A DNA stretch of 64,000 nucleotides, taken from positions 15,478-79,477 of IMG/VR virus record IMGVR_UViG_3300042922_001062. One strand, 5' to 3'. Positions 11,332 through 29,615 of this stretch are shown one piece after another. Both the position numbers and the translations under genes were made by a program. The stretch is from a virus. Numbering within the stretch: the first letter of the stretch is position 1; every line of letters starts with the position of its first letter. The notes beneath the pieces are model-generated. The model made no database searches. It had not been told where the DNA came from and saw only the letters and a program-made list of their open reading frames with translations.

Positions 11332-11542
11332 GAATCCCTCCGCTCTTGAAAGCCTGAGCTTAGCAAGGTCACGGGCCGCATGAACACGCCTGCGATCTCG
11401 CGCCGGGGCCGTCAATGAAGAACCGGTGCAGTGAGGCCAGCCGTGTTGGAGAGACCCTTGGGAAGGGTGTCGCCGCCGCGCTCAATGCCGCGGTGAGGGT
11501 CGCCGTCATTGCCGCCTGCGGCCGCTATCTCGGATGGTGGTG

Positions 11543-11752
11543 ATGGCGTGCGGTCCCTGCGGACGGGCGCGGCATGCGTCCAAGCTGGCGCTACGCGCCG
11601 CCATGAAGGGCGACCTACGAGAGGGCGCCATTCGCGCCAAGGAAGCCGCCGCTCACATCGGGGTGAAGATCAGGGGCCACGATGCAGAAGCGACGTCTCA
11701 GGAACCTTCGGCCACGACTGGCAGCGGCGAAGCCTCGCCTCGGCTACGTTGA
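11543..11752 (+). CDS. Small hypothetical protein
   Basis: MACGPCG start with a CxxC motif; immediately upstream of the HNH gene. Confidence 0.4.
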   Translation: MACGPCGRARHASKLALRAAMKGDLREGAIRAKEAAAHIGVKIRGHDAEATSQEPSATTGSGEASPRLR

Positions 11753-12059
11753 AGGTGACGCCAAGGCGCAAGACCGCCACCGCAACGCGCTGTCACCATG
11801 GCGCGCCTGGTACCACACCGAGCGCTGGCAGCGGCTGCGCCTGAAGATATTCGAGAGGGATGCCTACACCTGCCAGCGCACCGGAGAGGTCTGTGCCGGG
11901 CGGCACCCCGCCGCAAACAGCCCCGTGGCGAACCACATCCGCCCGCACAAGGGCGACCCGGCGCTGTTCTGGGATGAGGACAACCTCGAGACCGTGACCA
12001 AGGCGGTGCATGACGGCATCGTGCAGGCGGAGGAGCGGCGCGATGATACTCGCCCTTGA
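11682..12059 (+). CDS. Terminase-associated HNH endonuclease (start uncertain)
   Basis: WY.TERWQRLR..IFERD.Y.C, NHIRPHKGD..LFWD..NL; located upstream of terS like HK97 gp74. Confidence 0.85.
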   Translation: MQKRRLRNLRPRLAAAKPRLGYVEGDAKAQDRHRNALSPWRAWYHTERWQRLRLKIFERDAYTCQRTGEVCAGRHPAANSPVANHIRPHKGDPALFWDEDNLETVTKAVHDGIVQAEERRDDTRP

Positions 12060-12396
12060 CCACCTCATCTTCGGCAATGGCTACGGCATGGCTTCGCCGT
12101 TCTGTGATGCCCGCTATTACTGGCTCGTCGACACCCACCATCAGAAGCGGAGCGGTCGGAACGGAGAGCTCTATCAGTACGGCGCCGGCTTCGGGGCGCA
12201 GCTGAGGAGCCGGCAGTGGACGCACCCCCGGGCCGGCGAACGCCGTAGACTTGCCGGCCGCGAGTTCGTGGTGTTCCACAGCACCCGGCGATGGTTCCGT
12301 GTCGAGGTGGCGTGGTCGATGGTCGGGCTGCCCCGGGCGATCGACGAGGCCAACGCCGCGCTCCGCGAGCTGGAACGGGACCTCGGGCGTGTCTAA
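12043..12396 (+). CDS. Hypothetical protein
   Basis: ATG with GGAGGAG RBS overlapping the HNH 3' end. Confidence 0.55.
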   Translation: MILALDHLIFGNGYGMASPFCDARYYWLVDTHHQKRSGRNGELYQYGAGFGAQLRSRQWTHPRAGERRRLAGREFVVFHSTRRWFRVEVAWSMVGLPRAIDEANAALRELERDLGRV

Positions 12397-12485
12397 TCCC
12401 AACCCCACAAGGTGAAAACAACAGGTCACTTGTTGTTCCGCCGGTTCGTGGGCGACCTCGACCCGGAATTTTCCCTCCATGGGCA

Positions 12486-12597
12486 GGGGGGAGGGTCAAA
12501 AATCGACCATGGGTCAACCTACGGACCGGCGCCCCCTACATGCAGAGATTTTTTCCTCCCTGGACAAATTTCGGGGTGCGTACCAGCACTGCGTACT
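12486..12597. other. Putative helper cos/packaging initiation region
   Basis: Intergenic, between HNH and terS: G-run, GTCAAAA, ACCGGCGCCCCC, AGAGATTTTTT and TGCGTAC repeats; copied in the satellite. Confidence 0.75.
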
Positions 12598-12601
12598 GCC
12601 G

Positions 12602-13171
12602 ATGAGCGATCAGAACTCCACCATCGACTGGCCGGCGATCGAGCGTGATTTTCGTGCTGGATCAATGTCTAACCGCCAACTCGCTGATTGGTACTCGATC
12701 TCGGAAGGCGCGATCCGCAAGCGGGCGAAGAAGGAAGGTTGGACGAAGTCCGGTACGCAGCCGAAAGTGCGTACCGAGAGCGCGCACCGCGCTCCTCTCG
12801 CTCCGACGCCCACAACACCGGAGACCACTGCGCCGGAGGCCATTGTCAGCCGGGGCCGCAATCTCACGCTCCGGCTTCTCGACGAACTCGAGGCCACCAC
12901 CAGCCGCATCGGCGAGCTGGAGATGATGATTGACGCTGTAGCCGACGGTGAAGACGCAGAAGAGCAACGCAAGGTCTTGAAGCAGATCATCTCGCTCAAG
13001 CAGCGCGCTGAAATCCTGAAGTCGCTCGCGCTGTCGGCAAAGACCCTTTCCGAAACGACAACCGCCGCTCCGGCCGGCAAGAAGGCCGAGAAGCAAGCCG
13101 CTGCGGAGAGGGTGGCAAGCAAGTTCGGTGTCCGTACCCCGCCTAAGCTGGTGGTCGACAACAAGCCATGA
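12602..13171 (+). CDS. terS: Terminase small subunit
   Basis: [21 protein letters not shown]...[17 protein letters not shown]; overlaps the terL start. Confidence 0.82.
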
Positions 13172-14847
13172 AGCCGTGGTCCACTGCCTGTCCTGATTGG
13201 GAACGACGGATCGTTGCCAAGCAGTCGCTGATCCCGTTCGCGCCGCTCTTCCCGTCGGAAGCAGAAGCCGCCCTGGAGGTCTTCAAGGCGCTGAAGATCG
13301 TCGACGCTCCTGGCAGTCCAACATTCGGAGAAGCCTGCGAGCAGTGGGTGTTCGACTTCGTCGCCGCCATCTTCGGCGCGGCGGATCCGGAGACGGGCTC
13401 CCGGCTGATCCGAGAGTTCTTCCTGCTGATCAGCAAGAAGAACAGCAAATCGACGATCGCGGCCGGCATCATGCTCACTGCCCTGATCGTCAATTGGCGC
13501 CTCTCGGCGGAGTTGCTCATCCTGGCTCCGACGATCGAAGTCGCCGACAATTCGTTCAAGCCGGCGGCCGATATGGTCCGCCACGATGAGGAACTCTCAG
13601 ATCTCCTGCATGTGCAGGACCATATCCGAACCATCACGCACCGCGTCACCAAGGCCTTCCTGAAGGTGGTCGCTGCGGACGCTGACACAGTGTCCGGCAA
13701 GAAGGCCGCCTTCGTTCTCATGGACGAGCTCTGGGGTTTCGGAAAGAAGCCGCGCGCTGCTGCGATGCTGCGAGAGGCGACGGGTGGTCTCGTCTCGCGG
13801 CCGGAAGGCTTCGTGATCTATCTCTCAACCCAGTCCGACGAGGAACCCGCTGGCGTCTTCAAGGCCAAGCTGGACTATTTCCGGGGCGTTCGCGAAGGCA
13901 CGATTGTCGATCCGACTAGTCTGCCGGTGTTGTATGAATTTCCGGAGCCAATGGTCGAAGCGACGTCGTATCTCGACCCGGCGAACTTCTACATCACGAA
14001 CCCCAACATCGGACGGTCAGTCGATCGGGGCTGGCTGGAAGATGAATATCGCAAGATCAAGGATGCGACCGGCGGCGAGCTGCAGGTCTTCTTGGCGAAG
14101 CATCTGAATGTCGAGATCGGTCTCCGCCTCGCACAGGATCGTTGGTCAGGAGCCGGCTATTGGCCTCGCTGTGCCCACCCGGCGCTGCGCGACCTCGATG
14201 TGTTCCTGGGCCGCTGCGACGTTGTCGTCGCGGGTGGTGACGGTGGAGGTCTCGACGATCTCTTCGGGCTCGTTTTGATCGGCCGTGACCGCGATACGCG
14301 AAAGTGGCTCCTTTGGGCGCACGCGTGGGCGCATCCTGACGTGCTTGAGCGCCGACAGGAAATCGCTCCGCGGCTGCGAGATTTCGAAGCCGAAGGCTCG
14401 CTCACCATCTGCAAGCACCCGACACAGGATCACGAAGAGATCGCTGCCATTCTTCAGCGGGTTCATCGCGCGGGGCTTTTGCCGGAAGAAGCTGCGATTG
14501 GACTTGATCCCTTCGGCGTGACCGCTCTCATCGACGTGCTGATCGAGGCGGGCATCAGCGAAGACCAGATCATCGGTATCGCTCAGGGCTACAAGCTGAA
14601 CGGCGCCGTGCTTGGCCTGGAGCGCAAGCTGGCCGACGGCACCGTCGAACATGACGGCTCGACCATGATGAACTGGGTGGTCGGCAACGCGAAGGTGCAG
14701 AAGCGCGGCAATGCCGTGCTGGTGACCAAGGAAATCGCTGGCAAGGCCAAGATCGATCCACTCATGGCGGCCTTCAACGCAACGATGCTGATGGCGCGTA
14801 ATCCCGAGCCGAAGCAAACCCCTTCCTATCAGATGATCATCATCTGA
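13168..14847 (+). CDS. terL: Terminase large subunit
   Basis: ISKKNSKS Walker A, MDELW Walker B, STQ coupling motif, GDGGGLDDL and KIDPLMA nuclease motifs. Confidence 0.95.
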
Positions 14848-14876
14848 GGCGGCTGCGACCGCCTGGAGATCCCGAC

Positions 14877-15976
14877 ATGAACCGGATGTATTCGGTCCTC
14901 ACCGTCAAGGCGGTGGAGGATGACCAGCGCATTATCCGCGGCACCGCCACCACGCCGTCGCCGGACCGCATGGGCGATATCGTCGAGCCGCTCGGCGTGA
15001 CCTTCCAGAACCCGCTGGTGCTGCTTCACCAGCACGACAGCGACCGGCCGGTCGGCACGGTCACCTTCGACAGGCCGACGGCGAAGGGCATCACCTTCGA
15101 GGCGAGGCTCCCGACGATCGAAGAGCCCGGGCCGCTGAAAGACCGCGTCGACACCGCCTGGGGCGAGATCAAGGCCGGCTTGGTCCGTGCCGTCTCCATC
15201 GGTTTCCGAGCGCTCGAATACTCGTGGATGGATGATGGCGGCATCCGCTTCATCTCCACCGAGGTGCTCGAGCTCTCTCTCGTCTCCGTTCCGGCCAACG
15301 CCGAGGCGGTGATCTCCACCATCAAGTCGATCGACGCCCCTGTGCTCGCCGCGACCGGCAAGGGGCCGAAGGCGTCCGATCGGCCTGCACCTCCCGGCGT
15401 CTCGGGGAAATCCGTCAAACCAGTGAACCTGAGGCCGAAGGAGGCCAGGACCATGAAGACCATCGCTGAGCAGATTGCTGCTCTCGAAGCGTCGCGGCAG
15501 ACCAAGGCCGCGCGCATGGCTGAAGTCATGCAGAAGAGCATCGACGAGGGCCGCTCGACCGACGCCGCGGAGCAGGAGGAGTTCGACACCCTTGAGCAGG
15601 AAGTGTCCGCGCTCGACGGCGACCTCAAGCGCCTCCGCGCGCTGGAGAAGGCGCAGGCCGCCACCGGGAAGCCGGTGATCGCCAATCAGATCCGGACGGC
15701 CGAGCAGGGCACCACCGCGCGTTCGGGTGTCACCCTGAAGTCCGCGGCGCCGGATAAGGGCATCCGCTTCGCGCGGTACGCCAAGTGCCTCGCCATCTCC
15801 ACCAAGACCCATCAGTCCGTGGTGTCGGTGGCCGAGGCCATGTACGGCGGCAAGGATGACGACTTCATCGACATCGTGAAGGCCGCTGTCTCGGCGATGA
15901 CCACCGGCAACACCGATGCGCTCATCGGCAACGAGGGCGGTTTCGCCGACTTCGTGGAATTCCTCCGCCCGATGAC
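14877..15976 (+). CDS. Prohead protease-major capsid fusion, 5' part (interrupted by the satellite; reads on to a stop at 16004)
   Basis: HK97-type protease motifs DRMGDIV, LLHQHD, AVSIGF, ELSLVSVPAN, then coiled-coil delta domain and capsid start. Confidence 0.92.
15959..15976 (+). repeat. attL core (18-bp direct repeat)
   Basis: ATTCCTCCGCCCGATGAC, identical to 31721-31738. Confidence 0.95.
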
Positions 15977-16024
15977 GAGTGTCAACCAAGCGGTCGCGAT
16001 TTAGCGAACACTTTCAATATGTTG

Positions 16025-16049
16025 AGCCCGGCCGTGCGCCGGGCTTTTT
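16025..16049 (+). terminator. Rho-independent terminator just inside attL
   Basis: AGCCCGGC-CGTGC-GCCGGGCT followed by TTTT. Confidence 0.82.
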
Positions 16050-16079
16050 CGTTTCCGTAGTGTCCACAGCGTTCAAGAA

Positions 16080-16092
16080 AATCAATGGCTTA
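16080..16092 (+). promoter_or_regulatory. IHF binding site (second, one-mismatch site at 16012-16024)
   Basis: AATCAA-TGGC-TTA matches WATCAA-N4-TTR exactly. Confidence 0.65.
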
Positions 16093-16114
16093 CACGGGCA
16101 CCCGGTGCCTCCAT

Positions 16115-16132
16115 GCGACAAATGAGCGACAA
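16115..16132 (+). repeat. Putative integrase arm-type sites (left arm)
   Basis: GCGACAA twice, 11 bp apart; the same arrangement occurs at 31669-31686. Confidence 0.65.
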
Positions 16133-16152
16133 CGTAATCGAGGGAACTGGCT

Positions 16153-16425
16153 GTGAACGCGACAAAAAAAGCCGAAGGTGAAATCCTCTACGGGGTAAAG
16201 GCCATCGCGAAGTTTCTCGGGGTGACGCGCCGGCAAGCGCAACACCTCGTCGACTCCAAGGCGGTGCCAAGCTTCAAGATGGGGCGGACGGTGTGCGCCC
16301 GGCCCGAGCGGGTGCGAAGCGTGATTGAAGCAGCGGAGAACGGCAGGGCCGCGCCAAGCGATCAGGTGGACCAACCGCAGGACGGCGGGCAGCTTAACCT
16401 TCTCGGCGGCGGCGAACATGGCTAG
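16153..16425 (+). CDS. AlpA/excisionase-like HTH protein
   Basis: [19 protein letters not shown]...[13 protein letters not shown]; paralogue of 29218-29613. Confidence 0.75.
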
Positions 16426-17482
16426 CGCCAGTATGCTCCCGATCGTCACGGTGTCGAATGGCATCGTGATTGCCTCCAGCCGCGACGTGGCGGCCTATTT
16501 CGACGCAGACCATCGCGTGGTGCTGCTGGCGATCGATACGCTCATGGTTGAGGCCCCCGACGTAGCCGAGGCACACTTCCGCGAGCACCACGGCGAGGCC
16601 AGGCACTACGACATGACGCGCGGTGGCCTAGCGCTGCTGGCGCGCTCGCTGAGCGGTCCGCAGGTCGGGCGGTGGCGTGAGCGCTATCTCGAAGCCTTCG
16701 ACCGCCAGCAGCGCGCGCTGGGGCAGGGCAGCGCGCTCTCGGTGCGTCAGCATCAGCCGAGTCCGTCGCCGGCGTTGGTGCCTGCCCTGCCGGACAACCT
16801 TGCCGATGGTGAGCCTCTCACGATGTCGAGCCGGGAGATCGCCGACCTCACCGGCAAGGAGCACGACAACGTCCGCCGGGACATCAAGAACCTCGCGGAT
16901 GGGCTTTCCCTCAGCTTTGAGGAAAAGTCCGAACCGTCGGCAGGCGGGCGCCCCTCGAAGGTGTTTCTCCTTCCGAAGCGTGAGTGCCTGATCCTCGTCT
17001 CGGGGTACAGCATCGAGCTGCGTGCCCGTATCATCGATCGCTGGATGGAACTTGAGGTGCGGCAGGCGGACCCGGTGGCGATGTTCAACCCGTCCGATCC
17101 GCGCATCGTGTCGGCCGTGCTGTCCCATTGGCATCAGGAGGCCACGACGGCACACGCAGCGCTTGCCAAGGCCGAGGGCACGCTGGCGCGGATCGAGACC
17201 ACTGCCGGCTCTCTCTGCATCACGGACGCTGCGAAGGCGCTCTCGCACCCGCCCAAGGCGCTGTTCGCCAAGCTCTACCGCAACCATTGGACCTATCGGC
17301 GCGGTGGCAAGGGCGATTGGCTGGGCCATGCCGACAAGTGCCGTGCCGGCCTGCTGGATCACCAGCCTACGACTTATCAGCGTGACGGCGAGACGGTGAT
17401 CGGCACGCAGGTCGTCGTGACACCCAAGGGATTGCGGAAGCTGGCCGAGCTGCTCGCTCACGATCCGGATTGGAGGGACTGA
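16418..17482 (+). CDS. Antirepressor-like protein: two Rha-type domains plus a KilA-C (ANT) domain
   Basis: [31 protein letters not shown]...[29 protein letters not shown]...VTPKGL. Confidence 0.85.
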
Positions 17483-17709
17483 TGCCCGACATCATCGACG
17501 TCGACTGGGAATGCTGTGACGCCGAGGGTGAATCCTTTGAGCACCACGCCGAGCCGGACAAGGTGGCGGAAGGCCTGCTGATCGACGAGCCAGTGCTGGT
17601 GCGCTACCCCAACGGCCGTATAGCTGATGGCAACCGCATCGTGGTGACGGAGCGTGGCCTGGAGGCGCTGAAGTCCTTCGTCATCGAGGAATCGAAGGGC
17701 AGCCACTGA
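17482..17709 (+). CDS. Small protein resembling the KilA-C C-terminus
   Basis: RIVVTERGLEALK versus [13 protein letters not shown] in the upstream gene; TGATG coupling. Confidence 0.5.
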   Translation: MPDIIDVDWECCDAEGESFEHHAEPDKVAEGLLIDEPVLVRYPNGRIADGNRIVVTERGLEALKSFVIEESKGSH

Positions 17710-17820
17710 GGGGGGGAGGTCAAAAGGTCAGACGGCGTCCGTCTCTGGACCGGCGCCCCCTACATGCAGAGATTTTTTCCTCCCTGGACAAATTCGGGGT
17801 GCGTACCAGCGCCGCGTACT
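17710..17820. repeat. Satellite copy of the helper putative cos region
   Basis: 17747-17820 matches 12523-12597 at 72/75 positions; upstream G-run and GTCAAAA also conserved. Confidence 0.9.
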
Positions 17821-17919
17821 ACGTAATATCCATATGATATCAGGCAGATAGCCTCGGTACGCACCCTGCGTACCGCGCGTACTAAGTGCGCACTGCGTAC
17901 CACTGATAGCAGAGGCCCC

Positions 17920-17995
17920 GGGGGGGTATGCGGAACGTCAGGGACGCCCTTCTCTGCACCGGCGGCCTCACCAAAACTCTCGCAAAGCCAGATTG
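17920..17995. other. Second, diverged cos-like element
   Basis: G7 run, GTCAG, TCTCTGCACCGGCG with the same G-run to ACCGGCG spacing (38 vs 39 bp). Confidence 0.55.
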
Positions 17996-18005
17996 AGGTC
18001 CCGGA

Positions 18006-18377
18006 ATGTCTAATCTGGCTTCCGAGATGAGCTTCGCGGCGCGCGTCGATGAGCGCGAGCGGATGATGCTGCAGGCGATCAGCCATGCGGGATGGTGGAT
18101 GTCGCCCGACGGCCGGATCGGCGAACGGGATGCCGCGGCGCTCCTGGGGTACGGACACCCGGATTCATTCCGGAACGCGAGACGTCGCGCGGATCCTGGT
18201 GGGTGGCCACGTGTATTTCGCCTCGGCGGGAACGGAAACAAGCTGACCTATCAGGTCCGAGATCTGGCGGAGTTCGTCGAGCGCAAAGCAAATCCGCCGG
18301 CCGAAACCTACGATATTTTCCGCAAAGTCAATCGCGCGGGATCGGCGCTCTCCGACGCCCGTCGTAAGCTTGCTTGA
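18006..18377 (+). CDS. Putative DNA-binding protein (MerR/AlpA-like HTH)
   Basis: IGERDAAALLGY...SFRNAR...GGWPRVFR...LTYQVRDLAEFVE. Confidence 0.6.
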   Translation: MSNLASEMSFAARVDERERMMLQAISHAGWWMSPDGRIGERDAAALLGYGHPDSFRNARRRADPGGWPRVFRLGGNGNKLTYQVRDLAEFVERKANPPAETYDIFRKVNRAGSALSDARRKLA

Positions 18378-19426
18378 CCTTGATAAGGAGCGAGCTGATG
18401 CGCATCAATTCCGCCGGACACCTGCCCGCGATCATGGGCTTTCTCGCCCGGGCGCACCTTGCCGGTGTTTCGCCCTTGGAGATCGCGGCGAAGGATGGTG
18501 CTCCGCCCGACCTTCAGCTCCTCGTCAGGGCTGCGACCGGTGCCGTCATGCTCGGCGACGTCGCTGCTGCTGGCGCGCTGCGCGCGGCGGTCGAAACCTT
18601 CATCGGGACGCTGCGCGGGCGCTCCATATTCTACACGCTCCTCGCTGATGGCGCGTTCGTCCGCGCGCCGATCCGCACACGGCTCACAGCAGTCGAGAAC
18701 GGCGTGGTCGCCTACGTCGTGAGCGAGGGGCGTGCGAAGCCGGTTTCGAGGATCGGGCTCGACGCCGCGGGACTGGAACGCGCCAAGGCCACTTCGCTCA
18801 TCGTGCTGACGCGCGAGGCTGTGTACGCATCCTCGCCGGCGCTGCTCGACTTCCTGACCTCTGAGCTGCAGGGCGCGGTCTCGGCGGCCGTCGACGCGGC
18901 CTTCATCGCAAGGATCATCGACGACGGCTCGCCGAGCCTCACGCCGACCTTCAGCGCGTCGGGAGCGGGCATCGACGACATCAGGTTTGACCTCCGGCGA
19001 CTGCTCGACGCCGTGAACGTCACGGGCAGCGGCCATCTGGCATGGCTGATGTCGGCAGACGTCGCGAACCGCCTCGCCGTGCTCGTGGAGCACTTTCCCG
19101 GTATGGCGCCGAACGGTGGGACATTGCTCGAGCAGCCGGCCTTCGTTTCCGAGGCCATCGACCCGGGCTCGCTGCACTGCCTCAACGCCGCGTCGATCGC
19201 GGCGGACAGCGAGGCCATCATCGTGCGGTCCAGCGACGTCGCCAGCGTCGTTATGGATACCGCCCCAGCGCAGGACAGCTCCACGCCGGCGGCGACGCAG
19301 AACGTGTCGATGTTTCAAACCAACTCGACCGCCGTGCTCGCGGAGGCGTTTTTCGGAGCGCAACGGGTGCGGCCGAACGCGCTGGCGACGCTGACGGACA
19401 TCGCCTGGGGCGACGTGGCCTCATGA
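18374..19426 (+). CDS. Satellite HK97-fold major capsid protein paralogue (no protease domain)
   Basis: Aligns with the helper capsid: FIGTLRGRSI/FVEFLRPMTI, VSEGRAKPV/VGEGKGKPL, QD...VSMFQTNS.A..AE. Confidence 0.85.
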   Translation: MTLIRSELMRINSAGHLPAIMGFLARAHLAGVSPLEIAAKDGAPPDLQLLVRAATGAVMLGDVAAAGALRAAVETFIGTLRGRSIFYTLLADGAFVRAPIRTRLTAVENGVVAYVVSEGRAKPVSRIGLDAAGLERAKATSLIVLTREAVYASSPALLDFLTSELQGAVSAAVDAAFIARIIDDGSPSLTPTFSASGAGIDDIRFDLRRLLDAVNVTGSGHLAWLMSADVANRLAVLVEHFPGMAPNGGTLLEQPAFVSEAIDPGSLHCLNAASIAADSEAIIVRSSDVASVVMDTAPAQDSSTPAATQNVSMFQTNSTAVLAEAFFGAQRVRPNALATLTDIAWGDVAS

Positions 19427-20250
19427 GCAGGGTCGATCCCGCTACCGCAGCAGCGCTGAATAAAATTGACGTCCGCGTCGCGGAGATCGACGCCGCGCTC
19501 AAACGCCTCGACGCTGATGACTACAAGCACTTCAAAGATTTGCACCGCGCCGGTGCAAACGAGAAGGTGCGGCAGCAGCTCAACGCGGAACGCGCGGTGC
19601 AGATGCACAACCGGGCGCGGGTGCTCGCAGGCGAGCCGGTTGAACAGCCAGCACCCACGGAGCAGGCCAAGGCACTGCGGCTGCCGCCGGTGGAGCTCTA
19701 TGGCAAGGCCGAGCGACCCTGCAGAATCGAGCCAGCCATTACCCGCAGAGACGACTTGGTCGGCGTTGGCGATAGAACCGCCGATGAGATTCTCGATGTC
19801 GCCGAAGTTGAAGAGCGCGTGTCAGCGGACATCGCGCAGGCGATCGAGGTCGCCCACGCCAAGATGCGGGAGGCAATGACGCGCAATCCCACGTACGCGT
19901 TCGACTTGTCGACGCTGATCATGCTGAAGACCACCATCATCCAGGCGATGGCGCAGGCGACAATCATCGAAGCCGTCGGCGGTGTGCTGCGGCGCGAGCT
20001 CGAGGTGAAGCTCACCGATCGGATCGCAGTGCTGGAAAAGCGGATCGAGGAGTTTGAGCGCGGCGGCTTCGAGTATCGCGGCATCTATCAGCGCGCCCAA
20101 GCCTACAGACGAGGTCAGGTCGTCACCCATGACGGAAGCATGTGGGTGGCCGCCAAGGACACCGTGCTGCCGCCGGGCGCGCCGGAAGGCATGAACGAGT
20201 GGACTTTGGCCGTTAAGCGTGGCCGGGACGGGAAGGACGCCACCCGATGA
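19423..20250 (+). CDS. Coiled-coil protein with a C-terminal domain paralogous to the helper collagen-like head protein
   Basis: YRGIY....Y.RG.VVT.DGSMW...WTLAVKRGRDGKDA versus helper YRGVF....Y..GDTVT.AGSLW...WTLAAKRGRDGKEA; ATGA coupling. Confidence 0.8.
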   Translation: MSRVDPATAAALNKIDVRVAEIDAALKRLDADDYKHFKDLHRAGANEKVRQQLNAERAVQMHNRARVLAGEPVEQPAPTEQAKALRLPPVELYGKAERPCRIEPAITRRDDLVGVGDRTADEILDVAEVEERVSADIAQAIEVAHAKMREAMTRNPTYAFDLSTLIMLKTTIIQAMAQATIIEAVGGVLRRELEVKLTDRIAVLEKRIEEFERGGFEYRGIYQRAQAYRRGQVVTHDGSMWVAAKDTVLPPGAPEGMNEWTLAVKRGRDGKDATR

Positions 20251-20432
20251 AAGAGCAAGCCGTCGCCCTAACGAAGCGGTGCGTTGCGGCCTTCGTCGAG
20301 AAGATGGGCAGGCAGCCGGATGCGCACGAGCTCGATCTGCTCGCTGCGGCCGCGTGCCGGCATCTCCAAGACCGCGAGCACATGCGCCGATGGCCCGCCG
20401 CGACGGCGTCCGGATCTTCCACGGTGAACTAG
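20247..20432 (+). CDS. Small hypothetical protein
   Basis: ATGA-coupled 61-aa ORF. Confidence 0.45.
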   Translation: MKEQAVALTKRCVAAFVEKMGRQPDAHELDLLAAAACRHLQDREHMRRWPAATASGSSTVN

Positions 20433-20466
20433 CTCAAGCCTAGACCTCATAGCCTTAGGTGAGGCG

Positions 20467-20757
20467 ATGCCAAACTCAGAGATGCTCACAACTTACTCCC
20501 ATGGTACCGTTTCAGTGACCAAGGGATCAAAGACCGTCCGGGGCAAAGGCGTTTTCTGGCTGGACGTGCGGTCGTGCGACAGCCTCGAAGCCGGGGACCG
20601 CTGCCTCACCACCATCGCCTCAGTAGACGCGACCGATTTCACCACATTGGAGCTTGCTGTGCCTTGGTGCGGCGAGACAGCGGAGGACGTCCCTTACGTG
20701 ATCCGCTTCGACGCTCCGCAGCGATTTCCCGGCTACAGGGGGCGCGCCGATGGCTGA
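20467..20757 (+). CDS. Stand-alone tail-fibre N-terminal (anchor) domain paralogue
   Basis: YSHGTVSV...TIAS...LELAVP....DVPYVIRFDAPQRF matches the first ~80 aa of both fibres. Confidence 0.75.
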   Translation: MPNSEMLTTYSHGTVSVTKGSKTVRGKGVFWLDVRSCDSLEAGDRCLTTIASVDATDFTTLELAVPWCGETAEDVPYVIRFDAPQRFPGYRGRADG

Positions 20758-21847
20758 CCTCTACAGCACCGGCACCGTCTCGGTGCCCAGCGGTGGCACG
20801 ACTGTTACGCTGACCGGGGGGCTCTTTAGCGGTGTTCTCGCCGGCGATACGATCGAGATCGGCGAGCTTCCCGCGAAGACGATCGCATCGCCGACCGACG
20901 CCAGTCATCTGGAACTGGCCGTCGCGGTGACGTCCGATCAGGTGGATGTCCCCTATGTGCTTCGCTTCGACGCCCCGTCGCGCTTCACCTCCGGCTATCT
21001 CGCGGAGCAGGTGCGGGCGCTGATCGCGCAGGCGGGCATCATCAAGGCCGCCCGGCCAAACTACGAGGTGCAGAGCCTCGGCGGCAACGCACCGCCTGGC
21101 TCTCCTGTGACGGGAGACATGTACGTCGTCGGCACCGCGCCGACCGGCGCATGGGCTGGGCGGGCGAATAATTTGGCGCAGTGGACCGGCTCGGCGTGGC
21201 TGTTCACAGCGCCGGATCGAGGAACGACGGTCGTTAGCGTGGCGACGGGTATTGTGTCGATCTGGGGCGGCGCGGCGTGGCTACCTTACATAGGCCCTGG
21301 CGCTTTCATGCAGACGCTGATGCCGGCGGCGACGCAGGCCGCGGCGCAGACTACGCTTGGGCTCGATAGGGCCGCCCGCACGCTCTGGACGGCGGATATC
21401 TCCACTCCTGTCGCGGCGATTAACGTCCCGCTCGCGGCGGCGTATCGGGCGTTCAAGCTGACCATCGGCTGCCTCACCGGCTCGGATGCGACAGCCAACT
21501 TGATACACCGCATCAGCCGCGACGGGTCCACGGTCGACACGGGTGCATCGGACTATCAGGGGTCTGCGCTTGTTGTCGTGGGTAGCGGAGTTTCCGCGGC
21601 GGCGCGGACGGCGTCGGATGCGTTTCTCGGCACGTTGACGGCCACGATGGTAGCAATGGACATCACGCCTGGCGCGGCCGGTCTGCCGTACATGTGCACT
21701 TCCCAGTCTATGGAGTTCGCCTCTGGATATCGTCTTGATTTCCGCGGTACCCGTGCCGCGAATGTCGGGCGCGCTCAGTTCATCCAGATCTACCCGTCAG
21801 CCGGCAATCTGACTGCTGGGACGCTGACGCTGGCCGGGTATCCGTGA
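20750..21847 (+). CDS. Satellite tail fibre / receptor-binding protein (DUF2793-like module, distinct C-terminus)
   Basis: First 177 aa are 153/177 identical to helper fibre 49412-50605; the C-termini are unrelated. Confidence 0.9.
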   Translation: MADLYSTGTVSVPSGGTTVTLTGGLFSGVLAGDTIEIGELPAKTIASPTDASHLELAVAVTSDQVDVPYVLRFDAPSRFTSGYLAEQVRALIAQAGIIKAARPNYEVQSLGGNAPPGSPVTGDMYVVGTAPTGAWAGRANNLAQWTGSAWLFTAPDRGTTVVSVATGIVSIWGGAAWLPYIGPGAFMQTLMPAATQAAAQTTLGLDRAARTLWTADISTPVAAINVPLAAAYRAFKLTIGCLTGSDATANLIHRISRDGSTVDTGASDYQGSALVVVGSGVSAAARTASDAFLGTLTATMVAMDITPGAAGLPYMCTSQSMEFASGYRLDFRGTRAANVGRAQFIQIYPSAGNLTAGTLTLAGYP

Positions 21848-21892
21848 CGCCCGCCGCCGGGCTTCGAGGTGGTGGCTCGGCGGTCAGATATG

Positions 21893-21918
21893 AAAAAGGC
21901 CGCCCCGAAGGGCGGCCT
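21893..21918 (-). terminator. Terminator for the minus-strand moron (possibly bidirectional)
   Basis: AAAA-AGGCCGCCC-CGAA-GGGCGGCCT. Confidence 0.75.
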
Positions 21919-21932
21919 CTCTCACCGTCCGG

Positions 21933-22250
21933 CTAGCACGGTGTCTGCTTATTGGTGCAATCGCGACGGCCGTCATCCGAATTGCCGCTGCCGGCGGCCT
22001 TGGCCTCGCCGGGGTTCATGGAGTTGTTGCGCCCCTCGCTGGGCATGGTCGATTTCGGCACACCGGAGCCAACGGCCGGGGACTGGTCCTTGTAGCGGCT
22101 CTCGGTGGTGCCCGAGCTATTGTCGGAGCCGGTTGTAGCTCCCGCCGTGGAACCCGAGTTCCCTTGGCCGCTGCTCTGGGCCATCACAGGTGTGCCGAGC
22201 GCCAGTAATGCTGCCAGCGTGGCGATGGAAGTCGTCTTGGCATAGTTCAT
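21933..22250 (-). CDS. Small secreted Ser/Gly/Thr-rich protein (moron)
   Basis: Signal peptide ending PVMA-Q, low-complexity body, C-terminal CxxxxxxC; AGGAGG RBS. Confidence 0.75.
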   Translation of the reverse strand: MNYAKTTSIATLAALLALGTPVMAQSSGQGNSGSTAGATTGSDNSSGTTESRYKDQSPAVGSGVPKSTMPSEGRNNSMNPGEAKAAGSGNSDDGRRDCTNKQTPC

Positions 22251-22274
22251 GAGTTCCTCCTTCGATATGAGGCG

Positions 22275-22299
22275 AACCCACAGCTCTAGATGACGTTCC
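22275..22299 (-). promoter_or_regulatory. EcfG/sigmaT-type promoter
   Basis: Minus strand GGAAC-N16-GGTT, 25 bp upstream of the start codon. Confidence 0.72.
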
Positions 22300-22464
22300 G
22301 ACCAAATTGGCCGCTGAGGTACACGGCTAATGCACCTCGCGCCAACGTGAGCACTTTCCTGCCAGGCGGCTATGTCGATTTATTCCTTCCGCGAATCGTC
22401 AATCATCGCCTCGATGGCCCCGATCATCACTTCGAGGTCGGCGATCAGATGCAGTAACGATTTG

Positions 22465-22578
22465 CTCGACTTCCGCGGCACCCGCATCGCCAATCCAGGC
22501 CGTGCGCAGTTCATCCAGATATACCCGTTCGCCGGTAATCTGGCAGCCGGCCCTCTCACGCTGAAGGACATTCTGTAG
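22465..22578 (+). pseudogene. Orphan 3' end of an alternative tail-fibre allele
   Basis: 114-bp diverged duplicate of 21734-21847 (LDFRGTR.AN.GRAQFIQIYP.AGNL.AG.LTL). Confidence 0.8.
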
Positions 22579-22589
22579 GAGCATCTCAC

Positions 22590-23027
22590 ATGAACATTCT
22601 GGACGTCGACGGCGTGATCAAGCCGGCCGACCCCGCCTGGATCGCCCAGCGCGCGCTTGACGCCCTCCCGGTGGCTCCGACGCCAGCGGACGTCATCGCC
22701 GAGCGCGAGCGGCGCCTGGCCCTCGGATTCGCCTACGACTTCGAAGACGAACGCGGCGTGCACCACATCGCGACCACCCCGGAAGACATGAAGGGCTGGG
22801 ACGAGGTGACCATGCTCGCCAACGCCGCCATCAATGCCGGCGTGGCGGCGACCGAGATCCTCATCCTCACCAGCACCGGCCCGGTCACCGTGACGGCCGC
22901 CGAGTGGCAGCAGGTGCTCCTCGCCTCGGCGAACTTCCGCCAGCCGATCTGGCAGACCAGCTTCGCGCTGCAGGCGATGGACCCGATCCCGGCTGACGTC
23001 ACCGACGACGTGCACTGGCCGGATTGA
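22590..23027 (+). CDS. Tail fibre assembly/chaperone-like protein (DUF4376-like)
   Basis: DVIAERERRLALGF...IPADVTDDVHWP; AGGAG RBS; follows the fibre 3' end. Confidence 0.7.
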   Translation: MNILDVDGVIKPADPAWIAQRALDALPVAPTPADVIAERERRLALGFAYDFEDERGVHHIATTPEDMKGWDEVTMLANAAINAGVAATEILILTSTGPVTVTAAEWQQVLLASANFRQPIWQTSFALQAMDPIPADVTDDVHWPD

Positions 23028-23231
23028 CCTCCCAAGCGCCGCACGGTCATGACCGCTCGAGTTGATGGGCCGCGCTTGGTCTATTCGGGCACGAGGAAAG
23101 CCCAGCAGAATCCTGATTATCCACCACTGGCCGGAAGAGATCGGAAAGGCCGCTGGCCACGGCAGTAGCGGCTTGAACAAGTCTCGCCCGGCGCGCCACA
23201 ATTGCGGATGGGCATCCGAATCTGTACCGAC

Positions 23232-23879
23232 ATGCAATGCGTCGTCGACTGGCTCTACACGTGGCAGACGCTCATCTCGGGCGTGTTGGCACTGGGGGCG
23301 GCGGCGATGACTGTGGGGCTTCTGCGGATCCAGATCGAGGACGAGCGCGCCCGACACCGTTCCCAGCGGATAGCTAAGACATTGGCGGCCCGAGCGACGT
23401 TGCCAGATGCCCTGAGCGACATCGCGCGATACACCCGGGAGTGCATGGCTTATCTCGTCGGCAAGCGAGCCGAGCCACCGTTGGCGCCGGCCGACGGGAT
23501 AGCCGCGATCAAGGGCGCAATTGAATTCTGCGATGGCGACCCGGCCACCGCTCTCTTCGCTCTCGCCAGCTATTATCAAGTCCAACGAGCCCGGCTGGCG
23601 GAACATCGAGTTCGCCGAGGTCCAGAAAATCTGGACCGAATGCGAGATTGTGCGCACCTCAGAGCGCTGAGCGATCGGCTATTCGATTACGCTCGAGGAG
23701 AAGGCCTCGATGTTCGGACGGGTCGGCCGGATCCTGAAGAAGTTGTGAGGGCACTTGGCCAGATCGTCGGGCCTGGACCCATGATGACTCGTCCGAACGA
23801 ACGTGCTCGGCTCGAGGCCTGGATAAGAGGCACTCCCTTACGCCCCGACGACGAAGATGAGGCCGAGGAAGACGAGTAG
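23232..23879 (+). CDS. Membrane-anchored hypothetical protein (satellite cargo)
   Basis: WQTLISGVLALGAAAMTV N-terminal TM helix; acidic tail. Confidence 0.65.
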   Translation: MQCVVDWLYTWQTLISGVLALGAAAMTVGLLRIQIEDERARHRSQRIAKTLAARATLPDALSDIARYTRECMAYLVGKRAEPPLAPADGIAAIKGAIEFCDGDPATALFALASYYQVQRARLAEHRVRRGPENLDRMRDCAHLRALSDRLFDYARGEGLDVRTGRPDPEEVVRALGQIVGPGPMMTRPNERARLEAWIRGTPLRPDDEDEAEEDE

Positions 23880-24170
23880 ACGTCGGCTTGGCGGGTGCTC
23901 GCCTCCACGGTCTCTCTCGATCCCCGATGCCGCCGAATTGACACTGCTGCCGATCATGATGAACGTGTAGTGGCGGCGTAGGCGCCATGCCGGGCGAGAG
24001 CCTCGGCCTGGCCCTGCAGATCCTGACGGCTTTCCTATTCGGAGCGGAACAGGAGTAGGGACTGCCTCAGAGAATCTTGATTTACGTCCCTATAGTCCGG
24101 CCGCCTTGCGGAGCGCGGCATTGATGCGATCCTGCCAGCCTGGCCCGTCCGAAGACGAACCTTAGTTCGT

Positions 24171-26600
24171 TCAGGCAGCCGCAGGCTTTTGCCGAGCCAC
24201 GTACATTGCCATAGGCACGCACGGCAAATGGTGATTCGAGCTCGACATGAGGAGCAATCGGTTCACGTTGTTGTCCTGGAACCCGCCGATCCGTATCACC
24301 GATTGCAGCCATCCGATGGAATGCGGCACTCTGGCCTTCTTGATAAGGCGTTGGATGGCTGTCCTACTTCGGGAATGTCGCGCCGCCAATTGCGCTTCGA
24401 AGTTTGGCTTCACTTCTTCCGCCTTCAGAGACTTTAGGTAGTTGAACGTGCGACGGATCACCGATCGGAACTCGACGAATTCAGGTGCTTCTCTCAAGCT
24501 AAGGATATCGTCGCACTGGGTCGGAAACTCCAGTGGGGCTGACCGGATGTCTGCCGCAAGCGAATGTAGCGTCGATGAAGTTCCCAAATAGCGGCGGTTC
24601 AAAGCTGCGTTCAGCTCCAGCCAACGATGCTTGCTGTCAGTGAGGATCTGCGCCCCCGTGGCTTGCGCCAAATACATGGCGATTTCGAAGTTGGGTGCCA
24701 ACTTCATGAGCTGGATCTGTCCACCTGTTTCGGGAGCCAAGCTCTCCGGTTGGAGCACGGCAAGCGGGTCGGCCTCTCGGAGCTGGCCGATTTGCGGCAT
24801 CAGTTCGTCGAGATCGACTGTTTCGCCCTGCGGCATTGCTCGAGCGATCTGATTGCGTAGCCCCTCTTCGGACAAAGCGAGGAGTGTGCGCTTGAAGTCG
24901 TCGCGCATCAGTTCCTCCATCCGAGGGTCGTTTGAAATCTCGAACTCAAGGCCGGATGCCCGCGCCCTGGCCATCGCCATCATTTGATCGCGCAGGTGGA
25001 TGTCGAAGTCACAAGGATCGGGGATCAGGTTGACCAGACCCGCCTCGACCAACGGCATCATGCTCACGAAGAAATGGATCGTCTTCAACAGTTCGCCCCG
25101 GTACTGACCCGGGTGCTCGGTCGGACGGAATTTCTTATTCAGGGTGCCGGGGTGGACGAAAGGGTGCTGAATCAGCATTTCACCGAAATACAGCGGCGAA
25201 CCAATCGCGAATTCGTTGATGTGCTGGGGATGGAGGGAGCCGGTATAGACCGATCGAAGCTGCCCGTCCGGCTTTGGGAGTAAGTCGAGCAGGTCGGTTT
25301 CCAGTGGCCATAGGCCTTCGTAAAGGCTATAGGCACTTGCAATCTTTTCGTCGGTCATCTCGCGCCGAACTTGGGTCCAGTCCTTTCTGTCCAGTTCAAG
25401 GAGGTTCGACAAGCCGCGGAGAAGCATAAGGTTTCGCTCGCGGATGCTCCTAGCCGTCCAGCTCGGCCTTAGCTCGGATGGCTTCGGCTCGCAGCATCTG
25501 GCGAAGAGGTCGCCGGACCCACAACCACAAGAGTCCTTCGGTTTCAGCGGTGACACCGGCAGATCCTTTTGAAGGAACGCGCGCGGCTTTTCTGACCGGC
25601 CAAACTCATCCTGATAGTGAACATGTCCGCTGTCGAATTTGGCAAACATTTCACCGCCAAAAAGGTGGAGTTCGGTCTCTGGTGGTCGTAGTGTCTCCCG
25701 CAACTCCTTCCAAGATTTCTTCACCGTTTTCTCTGGATAAAGCCATGCCTCGCGTCCAGCAGCGATGTATCTTTCGGAGCGAGCCTTGAGGATGAAGTTG
25801 ATCTCCGAGACTTGTTGATCATCGAGTTCGCGAGACCGGATGAAATCGATCGTCGATACCATCGTCGGATGAAAGTTCCGAGCGAAGGTCCGGTTCTCAA
25901 GCGGATTCACGTCCGGGTTCTTTGCATACTCAAGATTTGTCAGGATCAGGCAGTGGTCTGGTCCCAGAGGGAAGATGGTCTGCGAACCTTTCCATGCAAT
26001 TGCCGGATCGTCGGTTTGGTCGCAACCAAGGTCTGCGGGAGGAGCAGCATAGTTATAAATCGTTACCGGATGGTCGGTAATGATGAACTTGACAGAGGCA
26101 TTTCCCGCCGAGACAATCTCCCGGACGCCAGTGGTCCAAATGGTACAATTGAGAAAACGAATACCCTGCATCTCAAGCATAAGCTCATTCTGGGAAAGCT
26201 CAGGGTACTGTCGCTTTAGCCACTCTAGGCCCTTTGGAGTGCGAAGCTTTTGGATGTCGATATACTCGAAAAAGGTCTTGAAGTGGGAGTGCCATGCGGC
26301 CTTGTCCAAGCCAGAGAGGGCGCGGACCGCGTCCGCGCCGCGGGTGTCAATGTCGCCGAATAGTTGTCGCTCGATTTCATCGTTTACCGCCGTTCCAAAG
26401 AATGTTGAATAAAGATCCCTTTGAACGAACGCACGGGATGTTGGAGAGTCAAACAATGACCGCCCTGTGTTTTTTCCTCCATCCCTCCGTGTGAAAATCG
26501 GCGGTGACAAGTCGAGATAGAATAAGGTTCTGCCTCCGTCGGTGAGGAAGCGTTCTTGATACCATTGGGGAACGTAGTGATTATTTCTTCTTACTGACAT
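24171..26600 (-). CDS. DUF4238-domain protein with a SEC-C-like motif (candidate anti-phage)
   Basis: N-terminal HYVPQWY, FIITDHPV, IFPLGP; central CGCGSG..FARCC; AT-richer codon usage. Confidence 0.75.
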   Translation of the reverse strand: MSVRRNNHYVPQWYQERFLTDGGRTLFYLDLSPPIFTRRDGGKNTGRSLFDSPTSRAFVQRDLYSTFFGTAVNDEIERQLFGDIDTRGADAVRALSGLDKAAWHSHFKTFFEYIDIQKLRTPKGLEWLKRQYPELSQNELMLEMQGIRFLNCTIWTTGVREIVSAGNASVKFIITDHPVTIYNYAAPPADLGCDQTDDPAIAWKGSQTIFPLGPDHCLILTNLEYAKNPDVNPLENRTFARNFHPTMVSTIDFIRSRELDDQQVSEINFILKARSERYIAAGREAWLYPEKTVKKSWKELRETLRPPETELHLFGGEMFAKFDSGHVHYQDEFGRSEKPRAFLQKDLPVSPLKPKDSCGCGSGDLFARCCEPKPSELRPSWTARSIRERNLMLLRGLSNLLELDRKDWTQVRREMTDEKIASAYSLYEGLWPLETDLLDLLPKPDGQLRSVYTGSLHPQHINEFAIGSPLYFGEMLIQHPFVHPGTLNKKFRPTEHPGQYRGELLKTIHFFVSMMPLVEAGLVNLIPDPCDFDIHLRDQMMAMARARASGLEFEISNDPRMEELMRDDFKRTLLALSEEGLRNQIARAMPQGETVDLDELMPQIGQLREADPLAVLQPESLAPETGGQIQLMKLAPNFEIAMYLAQATGAQILTDSKHRWLELNAALNRRYLGTSSTLHSLAADIRSAPLEFPTQCDDILSLREAPEFVEFRSVIRRTFNYLKSLKAEEVKPNFEAQLAARHSRSRTAIQRLIKKARVPHSIGWLQSVIRIGGFQDNNVNRLLLMSSSNHHLPCVPMAMYVARQKPAAA

Positions 26601-26657
26601 TGCCCTTTAGCATCGCTCCCGCCGCTAGTTGCTGCAATTCTTACCGGCTTGGGCGAA

Positions 26658-27920
26658 TTAAGGATGGCCTCGCAGCGCGATCATCTTGTTCGCGACACGG
26701 GCGGCCAAGTCGGAATGAAACTCCTCAAGGCTCTCCGCGGCTTCGATGAGGGCTTCGTCGGCACCGTCATCGTCCATCGCTTCGACCAGCTGCTCGACCT
26801 GTTGCGCAAGCTCTTCGAGCGCCTGATAGAGCCGGGTGCATTGGTCCAGAGTGAGCGACGGGTCGGCGAGGGCAGCGGGGACATCCTTGGCGAGATGCTT
26901 CGCCCTCTCGCCGCGCTCGCGCAGCAAAGTCATCCAGTCCGTCGCCATGTCGACGCGCTCCAGCAAAGCCGTCAGCTCCGCCCGTTTCAGGGTCGCCTCG
27001 ATAGTGGTCTCCTTCAACGCAGGTCCGCCGGGGCGGTGGGGGGACGTGACGGCCGCCCGAACGGCCAGTGCGCTCGATGGTGGCGCAGCGCCGATCGTGG
27101 CCATGAAATCCCCTTCGGGCACGATGCGCACGATATGGCCGGCGGCGAGCATGGCTTCGGCCTTGAGGTGCTTCGCGCTCTTGGGCGTGCCGAAATGCAC
27201 GTCTCGATCGCCGAGCACGAGCATGGTGGTGTGGCGGGTGACGCCCGGATGAACGTCGGCGCCAGCGGCCGCGGCAAGATCGGCCGCGGCGCTCTTGCCG
27301 AGCTCCAGCTTGCCGGTGAACACCACGACCTGGCCCGACAACGGCCCGTCGCCGACAGCCTCTCGGCGGATCGGAGCCGCCTTCTCGCCGGAGACCGGCA
27401 GTTCAACGCGGCGGAACCAGCCGTCCAGGTCCAGGCCGGTTTCTTCCATGGCGCGGTGCAGGATCACGCCGGCGGCGCGCGCGTCCTCAAGAGCGTCGTG
27501 GTGACGGAAGGCGATGCCGAACTCGGCGGCAATGATCGGCAGGCTGTAGCTCGCCCTGTCGGGCCATGCCCGCCGGGCGACGCGGATTGTGTCGAGCCAG
27601 CGGTTGCCGACGGATGCCAAGCCATGGCGATCGCAGGCCCGCATCAGCGACGTCCGGTCGAAGGGTCCATGGCTGATAACGGGCCGGTCACCGAGAGCAT
27701 TGAGAAGCCAGTCGTGCCGGTGGCGGAAGGGCAGGCACCCCGCGACGGCTTCCTCGTCGATGCCATGAATGCCGACGTTAAAGGCGTCGAAATAGTCCTC
27801 CGGGTCGATGAGGTGACATTCGGCGTGGATCTCTCTGCCGCCATCGAACACGACGACGCCAAGCTGGCAGATGCTGCTGTAGTTCGCGTTCGCGGTTTCT
27901 ACATCGATCGCGACGAACAT
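26658..27920 (-). CDS. DEDDh 3'-5' exonuclease plus BRCT domain and helical C-terminal extension
   Basis: IDVETAN, HHDALEDA; BRCT pattern LSGQVVVFTGKL...GVTRHTTMLVLG. Confidence 0.85.
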   Translation of the reverse strand: MFVAIDVETANANYSSICQLGVVVFDGGREIHAECHLIDPEDYFDAFNVGIHGIDEEAVAGCLPFRHRHDWLLNALGDRPVISHGPFDRTSLMRACDRHGLASVGNRWLDTIRVARRAWPDRASYSLPIIAAEFGIAFRHHDALEDARAAGVILHRAMEETGLDLDGWFRRVELPVSGEKAAPIRREAVGDGPLSGQVVVFTGKLELGKSAAADLAAAAGADVHPGVTRHTTMLVLGDRDVHFGTPKSAKHLKAEAMLAAGHIVRIVPEGDFMATIGAAPPSSALAVRAAVTSPHRPGGPALKETTIEATLKRAELTALLERVDMATDWMTLLRERGERAKHLAKDVPAALADPSLTLDQCTRLYQALEELAQQVEQLVEAMDDDGADEALIEAAESLEEFHSDLAARVANKMIALRGHP

Positions 27921-27991
27921 GGCTCCCTCCCATACCTTCCGGAAGGTTGCACATCGGCTCCGTTCACGGCAAGCGCGCCTGTTCTGCGACG

Positions 27992-28840: not shown

Positions 28841-28911
28841 GATCCGCCCCACTTCCAATGCGTGGCAACCTGCCATTGGAGTACCGGCAGCGCAATGAGC
28901 GCCTTCGCGAT

Positions 28912-29064: not shown

Positions 29065-29080
29065 CCGGACCTGGCCATCA

Positions 29081-29613: not shown

Positions 29614-29615
29614 TC

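Follow-up and report, generated by a model that had tools for sequence, protein, structure and literature searches.

The window analysed here is a 64,000-nucleotide (nt) stretch of the IMG/VR virus record IMGVR_UViG_3300042922_001062 (positions 15,478 to 79,477 of that record), and it contains a helper prophage with a satellite element inside its capsid gene. Two near-identical copies of a short block of DNA, one in each element, resemble a cohesive-end packaging site (cos). The host is a high-GC soil proteobacterium, and the source and related samples are soil and plant-associated. PHROG and Pfam scans gave the following gene order on the plus strand: replication genes, an HNH endonuclease gene as the upstream neighbour of cos (11682–12059; phrog_589, E = 2.6e-23), an unknown open reading frame (ORF), cos copy 1, the small terminase gene terS (12602–13171; phrog_1206, E = 1.2e-30), the large terminase gene terL (13168–14847; phrog_9, E = 3e-123), and a gene for a 375-amino-acid (aa) protein (14877–16004). 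These are followed by an Ant/Rha protein gene, a 79-aa ORF, cos copy 2, orf123, a capsid homologue gene, fibre-like genes, a lower-GC cargo block, a tyrosine integrase gene, and a gene for a 292-aa protein (31734–32612), after which come the portal gene, tail genes, and the endolysin gene. The 375-aa and 292-aa proteins matched positions 10–372 and 368–626 (the latter with E = 2e-71), respectively, of phrog_617, a family of fused prohead protease/scaffold/capsid proteins, and represent the protease-capsid N part and the capsid part of one interrupted helper gene.

The satellite is a 15,762-base-pair (bp) insertion, in frame, in this fused protease-scaffold-capsid gene. It is bordered by an 18-bp direct repeat, ATTCCTCCGCCCGATGAC, whose two copies form the attachment (att) cores attL (15959–15976, inside the helper protease-capsid gene) and attR (31721–31738), and the satellite integrase gene (30391–31713, plus strand; phrog_1, E = 4.9e-58) ends 7 nt before attR. 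The att core holds an in-frame ATG (31734), and the displaced capsid part therefore has its own start codon. In Logan contigs of three runs from two other studies (X2, X3, and X6), position 15958 was joined to 31721, so that the joint omitted 15762 nt with 18 nt shared across it. Since this exact empty site occurred in three other runs, a near-identical helper with an intact capsid gene must exist. The protease-capsid gene was also contiguous in L016–L018; in related prophages of Luteimonas, Stenotrophomonas, and a metagenome-assembled genome, as well as in about 25 metagenome loci, it was unbroken, with the portal gene next to it. In the source run, separate Logan contigs crossed attL (12541–17776) and attR (24111–32200) at an even depth of 41–56, indicating that the composite is not an assembly chimera. 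Pieces of the satellite were also found at 100% identity in run X3.

Among the main ORFs of 15977–31720, PHROG and Pfam scans (which also took in some of the small ORFs) detected no terS, terL, complete portal, tail-tube, or tape-measure gene; the only virion-type genes matched were those of the capsid homologue and the fibre-like proteins. The att repeats, the integrase, the absence of terminase genes from the scanned ORFs, and the empty site in three runs identify the element as a satellite embedded in its helper, as the initial annotation had proposed for the carrier of the second cos copy. Its size is about one-third of that of helper-type metagenome contigs (44–49 kb).

Alignment of helper positions 12523–12597 with satellite positions 17747–17820 (plus strand) gave 72 identical positions out of 75. 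The differences were one 1-nt indel (AAATTT/AAATT) and two substitutions (CAGCACTG versus CAGCGCCG). A repeat finder gave 96% identity for the ungapped core (12523–12575 and 17747–17799; its repeat family D3) and, besides the block, no helper–satellite direct repeat above about 79% over 47 nt. The block is the sole strong DNA similarity between the two elements and is present in exactly two copies in the whole 79.5-kb record. A scan of IMG/VR for the exact 21-nt cos core returned no match except the record itself, and megablast of 11500–20500 against GenBank phages returned only a 170-nt terL match. To the left of the block the two elements diverge, and only a G-run with TCAAAA(A) after it has survived, at an equal distance from the block: GGGGGGAGGG-TCAAAAA in the helper (12486–12502) and GGGGGGGAGG-TCAAAA in the satellite (17710–17725), both on the plus strand. 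Alignment and the repeat finder thus confirmed the reported 72/75 match, and the claim that the upstream G-run and GTCAAAA are retained in the satellite also held.

We then compared both copies with phages whose genome ends are available. The helper terL groups with those of D3-like Pseudomonas phages, phiE125, and staphylococcal cos phages, and is about 60% identical to terL of the Burkholderia phages Bcep176 and phiBt-TXDOH; the helper terS had only distant relatives in IMG/VR. In GenBank, D3, phiE125, and Bcep176 are linear records in which HNH lies at one terminus and terS at the opposite one. Joining these ends and aligning them with the helper and satellite copies indicated a common order of a G-run, (C)AAAA, about 22 nt, GAC, a 10-nt G+C-rich core, and an A/T tract followed by CC, with terS 35–90 nt beyond the last element. 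The upstream G-run motif of the helper lies at the same distance from the genome end as in D3, phiE125, Bcep176, PHB09, and IME307. The record ends of D3, phiE125, and Bcep176 fall directly after the 10-nt core. The cos of phiE125 and phi644-2 has a 10-base 3' extension with the right overhang 5'-CGCCCGCTTC-3' (PMC2920897), which equals the last 10 nt of the phiE125 record. Bcep176 has CGCACGTTCC at both record ends. The D3 record ends in GCGCCCCCA, compared with GCGCCCCCT in the helper and satellite; the overhang length taken for D3 is in line with its record ends.

By this alignment, the helper cosN is predicted at 12527–12536 with the 10-nt 3' overhang CGGCGCCCCC, and the satellite cosN, identical in sequence, at 17751–17760 (both plus strand). 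The top strand would be cut after 12536 (12536|12537) and after 17760 (17760|17761). The near-identical block begins 4 nt ahead of the predicted overhang and extends toward the terS side. It includes a T-tract (12549–12554 in the helper, plus strand), +13 to +18 after the predicted cut, which corresponds to the A/T tract and CC conserved in all relatives. The helper copy lies between HNH and terS; neither gene flanks the satellite copy, in keeping with a mimic. With the block near-identical and the G-run/TCAAAA motif kept, no conserved element of this cos type is missing from the satellite.

For a linear cos genome, assembled contigs should stop where the DNA molecule physically ends. Many helper-type metagenome contigs stopped 400–800 nt upstream of terL, and the first bases of L035, L036, L044, L046, and L049–L051 matched the position just after the predicted cut. 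Contig L036 starts with CTCACGCGCAGAA, as does the left end of Bcep176; L044 and L046 start with CCCTTTTAGAGATTT (compare TACATGCAGAGATTT in the helper and satellite); and L049, L050, and L051 start with CTC/T-tract, as D3 does. These contigs are probably linear virion genomes. The breaks of the source-run contigs at 12541–12552 and 17765–17776 stem from a 53-nt repeat and not from termini. The alignment with the ends of D3, phiE125, and Bcep176, the published phiE125 overhang, and the contig ends all supported the earlier claim that the satellite block is a copy of the helper cos site, and the block is very probably a cos site of the D3/phiE125/HK97 type, namely HNH-assisted with a 3' overhang. 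A dyad symmetry closed by GTC...GAC was found between the CAAAA motif and cosN in the satellite (17722–17750), Bcep176, and phiE125, each with a different sequence (DNA fold z of about −2); it was absent in the helper, D3, PHB09, and IME307, so it is not shared by this cos type as a whole.

On the terS side of the predicted cut, both copies are followed by GCGTAC boxes. Over both strands of the window, GCGTAC occurred 23 times, against 21 in shuffled sequences, so there was no overall excess. It clustered only at the two cos regions, with four sites in the helper (12578, 12591, 12753 on the minus strand, and 12769), six in the satellite (17801, 17814, 17857 on the minus strand, 17868, 17877, and 17895), and 13 in the other 63.7 kb. 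With these 13 sites as the Poisson background, the probability of at least six GCGTAC in 100 nt was 1e-13, and that of the four extra satellite boxes in 44 nt was 3e-10. Of 40 Markov simulations, five contained six copies of some hexamer within 100 nt; what gives the observed cluster its weight is the rarity of GCGTAC as a word and the clustering of this one word at both sites. As the 8-mer YGCGTACY, 10 of the 14 sites of the window fall in the two cos regions.

The arrangement of the boxes differs between the two elements. Helper boxes 1 and 2 (TGCGTACC and TGCGTACT; 12577–12597, plus strand) lie just ahead of the terS ATG and begin at +41 and +54 from the predicted cut, and this pair is retained in the satellite (TGCGTACC and CGCGTACT; 17800–17820, plus strand) with the same 13-nt spacing. 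Helper boxes 3 and 4 form an inverted-then-direct pair within terS, GGTACGCA-N8-TGCGTACC (12752–12775), and the satellite has GGTACGCA-N3-TGCGTACC in non-coding DNA (17856–17874). The two groups are separated by 155 nt of terS coding sequence in the helper and by a 35-nt AT-rich, partly palindromic spacer, as read from the sequence, in the satellite (17821–17855). Relative to the helper array, the satellite has shortened the gap of the inverted pair from N8 to N3 and added two more direct boxes and one degenerate box, so that boxes 3–6 (GGTACGCA inverted; TGCGTACC, CGCGTACT, and TGCGTACC direct) and a degenerate TGCGCAC occupy 17856–17901. In total, four boxes span 200 nt in the helper, with two of them in terS, and six boxes fit into 100 nt of non-coding DNA in the satellite. 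The initial annotation had given four boxes for the helper and six in 17800–17900 for the satellite, and had described an inverted-then-direct pair common to both and non-coding in the satellite; the both-strand count and the positions above agree with these statements.

Relatives of the helper terS were informative about the function of the boxes. In phrog_1206 terS genes, arrays of inverted and direct 7–9-nt repeats, specific to each phage, were found inside the gene, directly 3' of the codons for AKKEGWTK, a conserved sequence that marks the end of the TerS N-terminal domain. Thus, L010 (6133–6192) carries GTTCGCA twice and then TGCGAAC three times, L013 (6121–6211) carries GTTTCCA/TGGAAAC, and L011 (540–630) and L012 carry GCTACAG three times and CAATCGGACA twice, all inside terS. 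The helper pair GGTACGCA-N8-TGCGTACC lies at exactly this position. Since peptide repeats cannot explain inverted repeats, the signal lies in the DNA, and the intragenic arrays look like a family-wide packaging recognition site within phrog_1206 terS. In phages that share the cos core architecture but have a different, small terS family (Bcep176, PHB09, IME307, and CF53a), three to four GTTAAC boxes lie between the cut and the terS ATG, and several helper-type contigs have repeats of their own in this slot: GTTCCACGG twice in L049, GTGTTAC/GTGTAAC in L044, and GAAACATC twice in L046. The cos core motifs track terL and HNH, and the box word tracks the terS family.

Sites for packaging initiation (pac) within terS genes are classical in P22, SPP1, and P1, and the R elements of lambda cosB are bound by TerS. 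Taken together, these comparisons make TerS specificity elements that work like lambda cosB the most likely function of the GCGTAC boxes, a plausible reading that we rate as slightly more probable than not. Like lambda cosB (R1–R3) and the TerS site of HK97, they are short elements on the terS side of cosN; unlike these, they are 8-mers of which two lie inside terS coding sequence, which is more like the pac sites of P22, SPP1, and P1. The initial annotation had called the boxes TerS-binding elements. The phage-specific repeats at the same positions in relatives support this proposal indirectly, and the TerS contact itself is the part that we only infer.

From these results, we propose that 17710–17901 is the packaging site of the satellite and a working mimic of the helper cos, with a probability of about 0.7–0.8 (0.72 by our estimate). 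Behind this proposal are the identity of the two copies, their motif architecture, and where they lie relative to mapped ends of relatives, together with the findings that the element is mobile and that its scanned ORFs include no terminase gene. From left to right, the site would consist of the G-run/TCAAAA motif, cosN (CGGCGCCCCC, 17751–17760, cut after 17760), the T-tract, and a cosB-like YGCGTACY array that would be read by the DNA-binding domain of the helper TerS. On induction, the 15.76-kb element would excise by its own integrase at the 18-bp att core, which would restore the helper capsid gene. Because the satellite lacks its own terminase, we propose that the helper terminase complex packages it: the helper TerS would bind the boxes, TerL and HNH would nick at cosN of the satellite DNA, and satellite units of 15.76 kb, or multimers of them, would be packaged by TerS, TerL, and HNH from the satellite cos copy. 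The use of the helper's own box word suggests that the TerS is used unmodified, and the denser satellite array probably keeps or raises TerS occupancy. The one-third size fits small capsids that may be directed by the satellite capsid homologue, parallel to Ccm of SaPIbov5 (see below), and also fits trimers in full-size heads.

Several points weigh against this proposal. The assignment of TerS binding to the boxes comes from their position and repetition only. HK97 TerS recognizes one 15-bp site (+15 to +29) whose A-tract is essential (PMC11331095), as opposed to the multiple boxes here, and by analogy the conserved T-tract rather than the boxes could be the main TerS contact; the tract at 12549–12554 is thus a competing candidate for at least part of that contact. 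The box region is also located upstream of the satellite orf123-capsid operon, where an operator role is conceivable. The source run is represented by contigs, and the cos ends are predictions. In the variant helper of run X2, single-nucleotide polymorphisms (SNPs) spare the boxes, not significantly so, as about three SNPs are expected per stretch. Finally, a Rhodanobacter genome with a similar cos-like site (locus L014, described below) has a single copy of it and therefore provides no second helper/satellite pair.

The alternative that survives best, although we consider it unlikely, is that the block and boxes are a late promoter/operator copied from the helper that co-activates the satellite orf123-capsid operon, with the boxes as half-sites of a regulator and not of TerS. 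P4 is known to copy the late-promoter logic of P2, in the helper the block immediately precedes terS, in the satellite orf123 and the capsid homologue follow it at about 100–190 nt, the dyads such as GGTACGCA-N3-TGCGTACC are typical of helix-turn-helix (HTH) dimers, and TAATAT is found within the AT-rich spacer. However, a consensus scan of both regions detected no sigma-70-type promoter and no terminator, the architecture fits mapped genome ends in relatives, two helper boxes are inside the terS coding sequence, which would be an odd location for an operator, and the box type switches with the terS family among relatives. The promoter/operator and packaging roles are mutually compatible.

We regard as still less probable that cosN and the T-tract make up the whole functional site and that the GCGTAC boxes are leftovers of the 5' end of a former satellite terS, or a local duplication. 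The 15-bp A-tract site beside the cut is all that HK97 TerS needs (PMC11331095), and islands of the SaPIbov5 type retain a 3' remnant of their own terS beside the acquired cos (PMC5052747). After the box pair, the helper terS reads GCGCGCAC and the satellite GTGCGCAC, which hints at common descent from a terS sequence. However, the six boxes are perfect amid surrounding and intervening DNA that is no longer recognizably similar, which argues for selection on the boxes, and the arrays recur at the same positions in the unrelated sequence of relatives. An assembly or recombination artefact, in which the satellite would be a chimeric metagenome join, is highly improbable. In its favour, the record is a metagenome-derived contig and the source-run Logan contigs break at the 53-nt repeat; against it, independent contigs cross attL and attR at even depth, the 18-bp repeat bounds the insertion beside an integrase, the precise empty site was found in three other runs, and satellite pieces occurred at 100% identity in run X3.

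Returning to the packaging-site proposal, a stronger form of it is that the six boxes per 100 nt act as a "super-cosB" that captures TerS better than the helper cos, with competition between sites as the sole mechanism and no protein like Rpp or Ppi involved, and that the unexcised composite is unpackageable. We hold this form as tentative and rather doubtful, and a packaging advantage from more boxes, with which the initial annotation had suggested the satellite could outcompete the helper for terminase, is speculation. The second co-oriented cos, 5.2 kb downstream, would make the unexcised composite unpackageable and would tie virion production to satellite excision. In the embedded state, one replicon carries two co-oriented cos sites 5.2 kb apart, and the cos-to-cos units of the unexcised composite would measure 5.2 kb or about 10 kb over the helper length. 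In addition, the 53-nt repeat could mediate deletion of terS–terL.

Mimicry of cos by satellites is already established in P4, SaPIbov5, and helper-embedded phage-inducible chromosomal islands (HE-PICIs) of E. coli. Among the Staphylococcus aureus pathogenicity islands (SaPIs), SaPIbov5 has a conserved helper cos site and Ccm, an HK97-fold capsid homologue (PMC5052747). Our element resembles SaPIbov4/SaPIbov5 with phi12/phiSLT in being a terminase-less satellite with a highly conserved copy of the cos of an HNH-assisted cos helper (PMC5052747), in its HK97-fold capsid homologue (32% identical to the helper capsid here), and in its size of about one-third of the helper. Unlike these islands, it resides in a high-GC soil proteobacterium, is integrated in the helper capsid gene and not in the chromosome, has a box array that is multiplied and not just copied, and has no detected SaPI-type regulatory/replication module.

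The E. coli HE-PICI 11capE in prophage 50icd, which encodes a capsid protein of its own, has 258 bp in common with its helper at the helper cos position, with 90% identity (PMC10111431); our element shares 75 bp at 96%. As in 11capE, the satellite is inserted in and co-oriented with the helper major capsid gene, here the fused protease-capsid gene split between the two phrog_617 parts, and has its own capsid homologue, no terS, and a Bro/Ant-type gene (PMC10111431). Unlike in HE-PICIs, where cos and terminase are of the lambda type, they are of the D3/phiE125/HK97 type with HNH here; the integrase is at the downstream end, no AlpA-primase-ori module was found in the scans, and the host clade is not enterobacterial. 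The EcCICFT073-type PICIs keep the helper cosQ and cosN, with a divergent cosB read by an Rpp-TerS heterodimer, and need the helper TerS (PMC6739421). Our element likewise keeps the putative cosQ and cosN of its helper and would need the helper TerS; unlike them, it keeps the helper's own box word, and its orf123 (see below) encodes a winged-helix protein of uncertain kind. In the P4/P2 system, as here, the satellite cos is near-identical to that of the helper, and P4 is packaged by the P2 terminase. Unlike our element, P4 redirects capsid size by Sid, has its own primase, and is not embedded in P2.

Other satellite genes were also characterized. The capsid homologue gene (18374–19426, plus strand; PF05065; phrog_617 positions 312–626) encodes a standalone HK97-fold protein without the protease/scaffold part and 32% identical to the helper capsid part. 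Its family is rare, with eight hits among 5.8 billion proteins, one of them a Sinorhizobium medicae protein (42%), and no relative was found in IMG/VR. The closest sister satellite is on a 17.9-kb contig and is related through P0005 (54%) and P0012 (62%). Directly after the satellite cos, orf123 (18006–18377, plus strand) encodes a winged-helix protein according to its AlphaFold2 model (mean predicted local distance difference test score, pLDDT, 74). A large protein collection yielded a single homologue, which is 62% identical and encoded on the sister satellite's contig. Its fold matches, all weak (Z of about 5), were among others to an excisionase, to MerR types, and to small domains described in work on a DNA-packaging motor, and fit an excisionase as well as a TerS-type DNA-binding domain; BLASTP detected no similarity between orf123 and TerS. 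An Xis-like or an Rpp-like role is conceivable, the latter as speculation.

The first large satellite gene (16325–17482) encodes a 385-aa antirepressor-type protein of the Rha/Ant (KilAC) type. P4 epsilon derepresses P2, and by analogy the Rha/Ant protein could derepress the helper. The lower-GC cargo block (24171–29017, minus strand) probably serves in defence against phages: its genes encode an 809-aa DUF4238 protein, an exonuclease of the RNase_T type that also gave a weak BRCT hit, and an AbiJ_NTD4 protein. In the search for AlpA, primase, and ori, only weak HTH_17 hits under the Pfam cut-off and no primase or replicase hit were obtained, and several ORFs belonged to no family.

D3-type cos-like sites followed by two CCGAGTG[CA]A repeats were also observed in L014:11649–11800 (Rhodanobacter sp. 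Col0626), L033:11542–11700, and L034:1878–2030. In all three, a capsid gene that stands alone lies 650–850 nt upstream of the cos-like site, and the locus DNA examined contained no gene for a terminase, portal, or protease. These loci hint at a wider satellite family that has yet to be described, of which they may be additional members.

The strategy seen here is the same as in the known satellites, in a different phage and host lineage and with an HNH-assisted cos that has a predicted 3' overhang. It extends cos piracy and helper embedding beyond staphylococci and enterobacteria to a common soil/rhizosphere phage group that packages its DNA in the manner of D3 and phiE125 and has its protease and capsid fused in one gene. 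For a phage–satellite pair that is uncultured, it predicts cosN and the TerS recognition word at base level. The comparison also revealed box arrays, different from phage to phage, inside the genes of one terS family. What is new, though unproven, is the multiplied array of the same box word, moved from coding to non-coding DNA: EcCICFT073 has a different cosB plus Rpp, whereas this satellite retains the helper boxes and has more of them. If site multiplication alone does bias packaging, it would be a simple and so far undocumented route by which a satellite competes with its helper.

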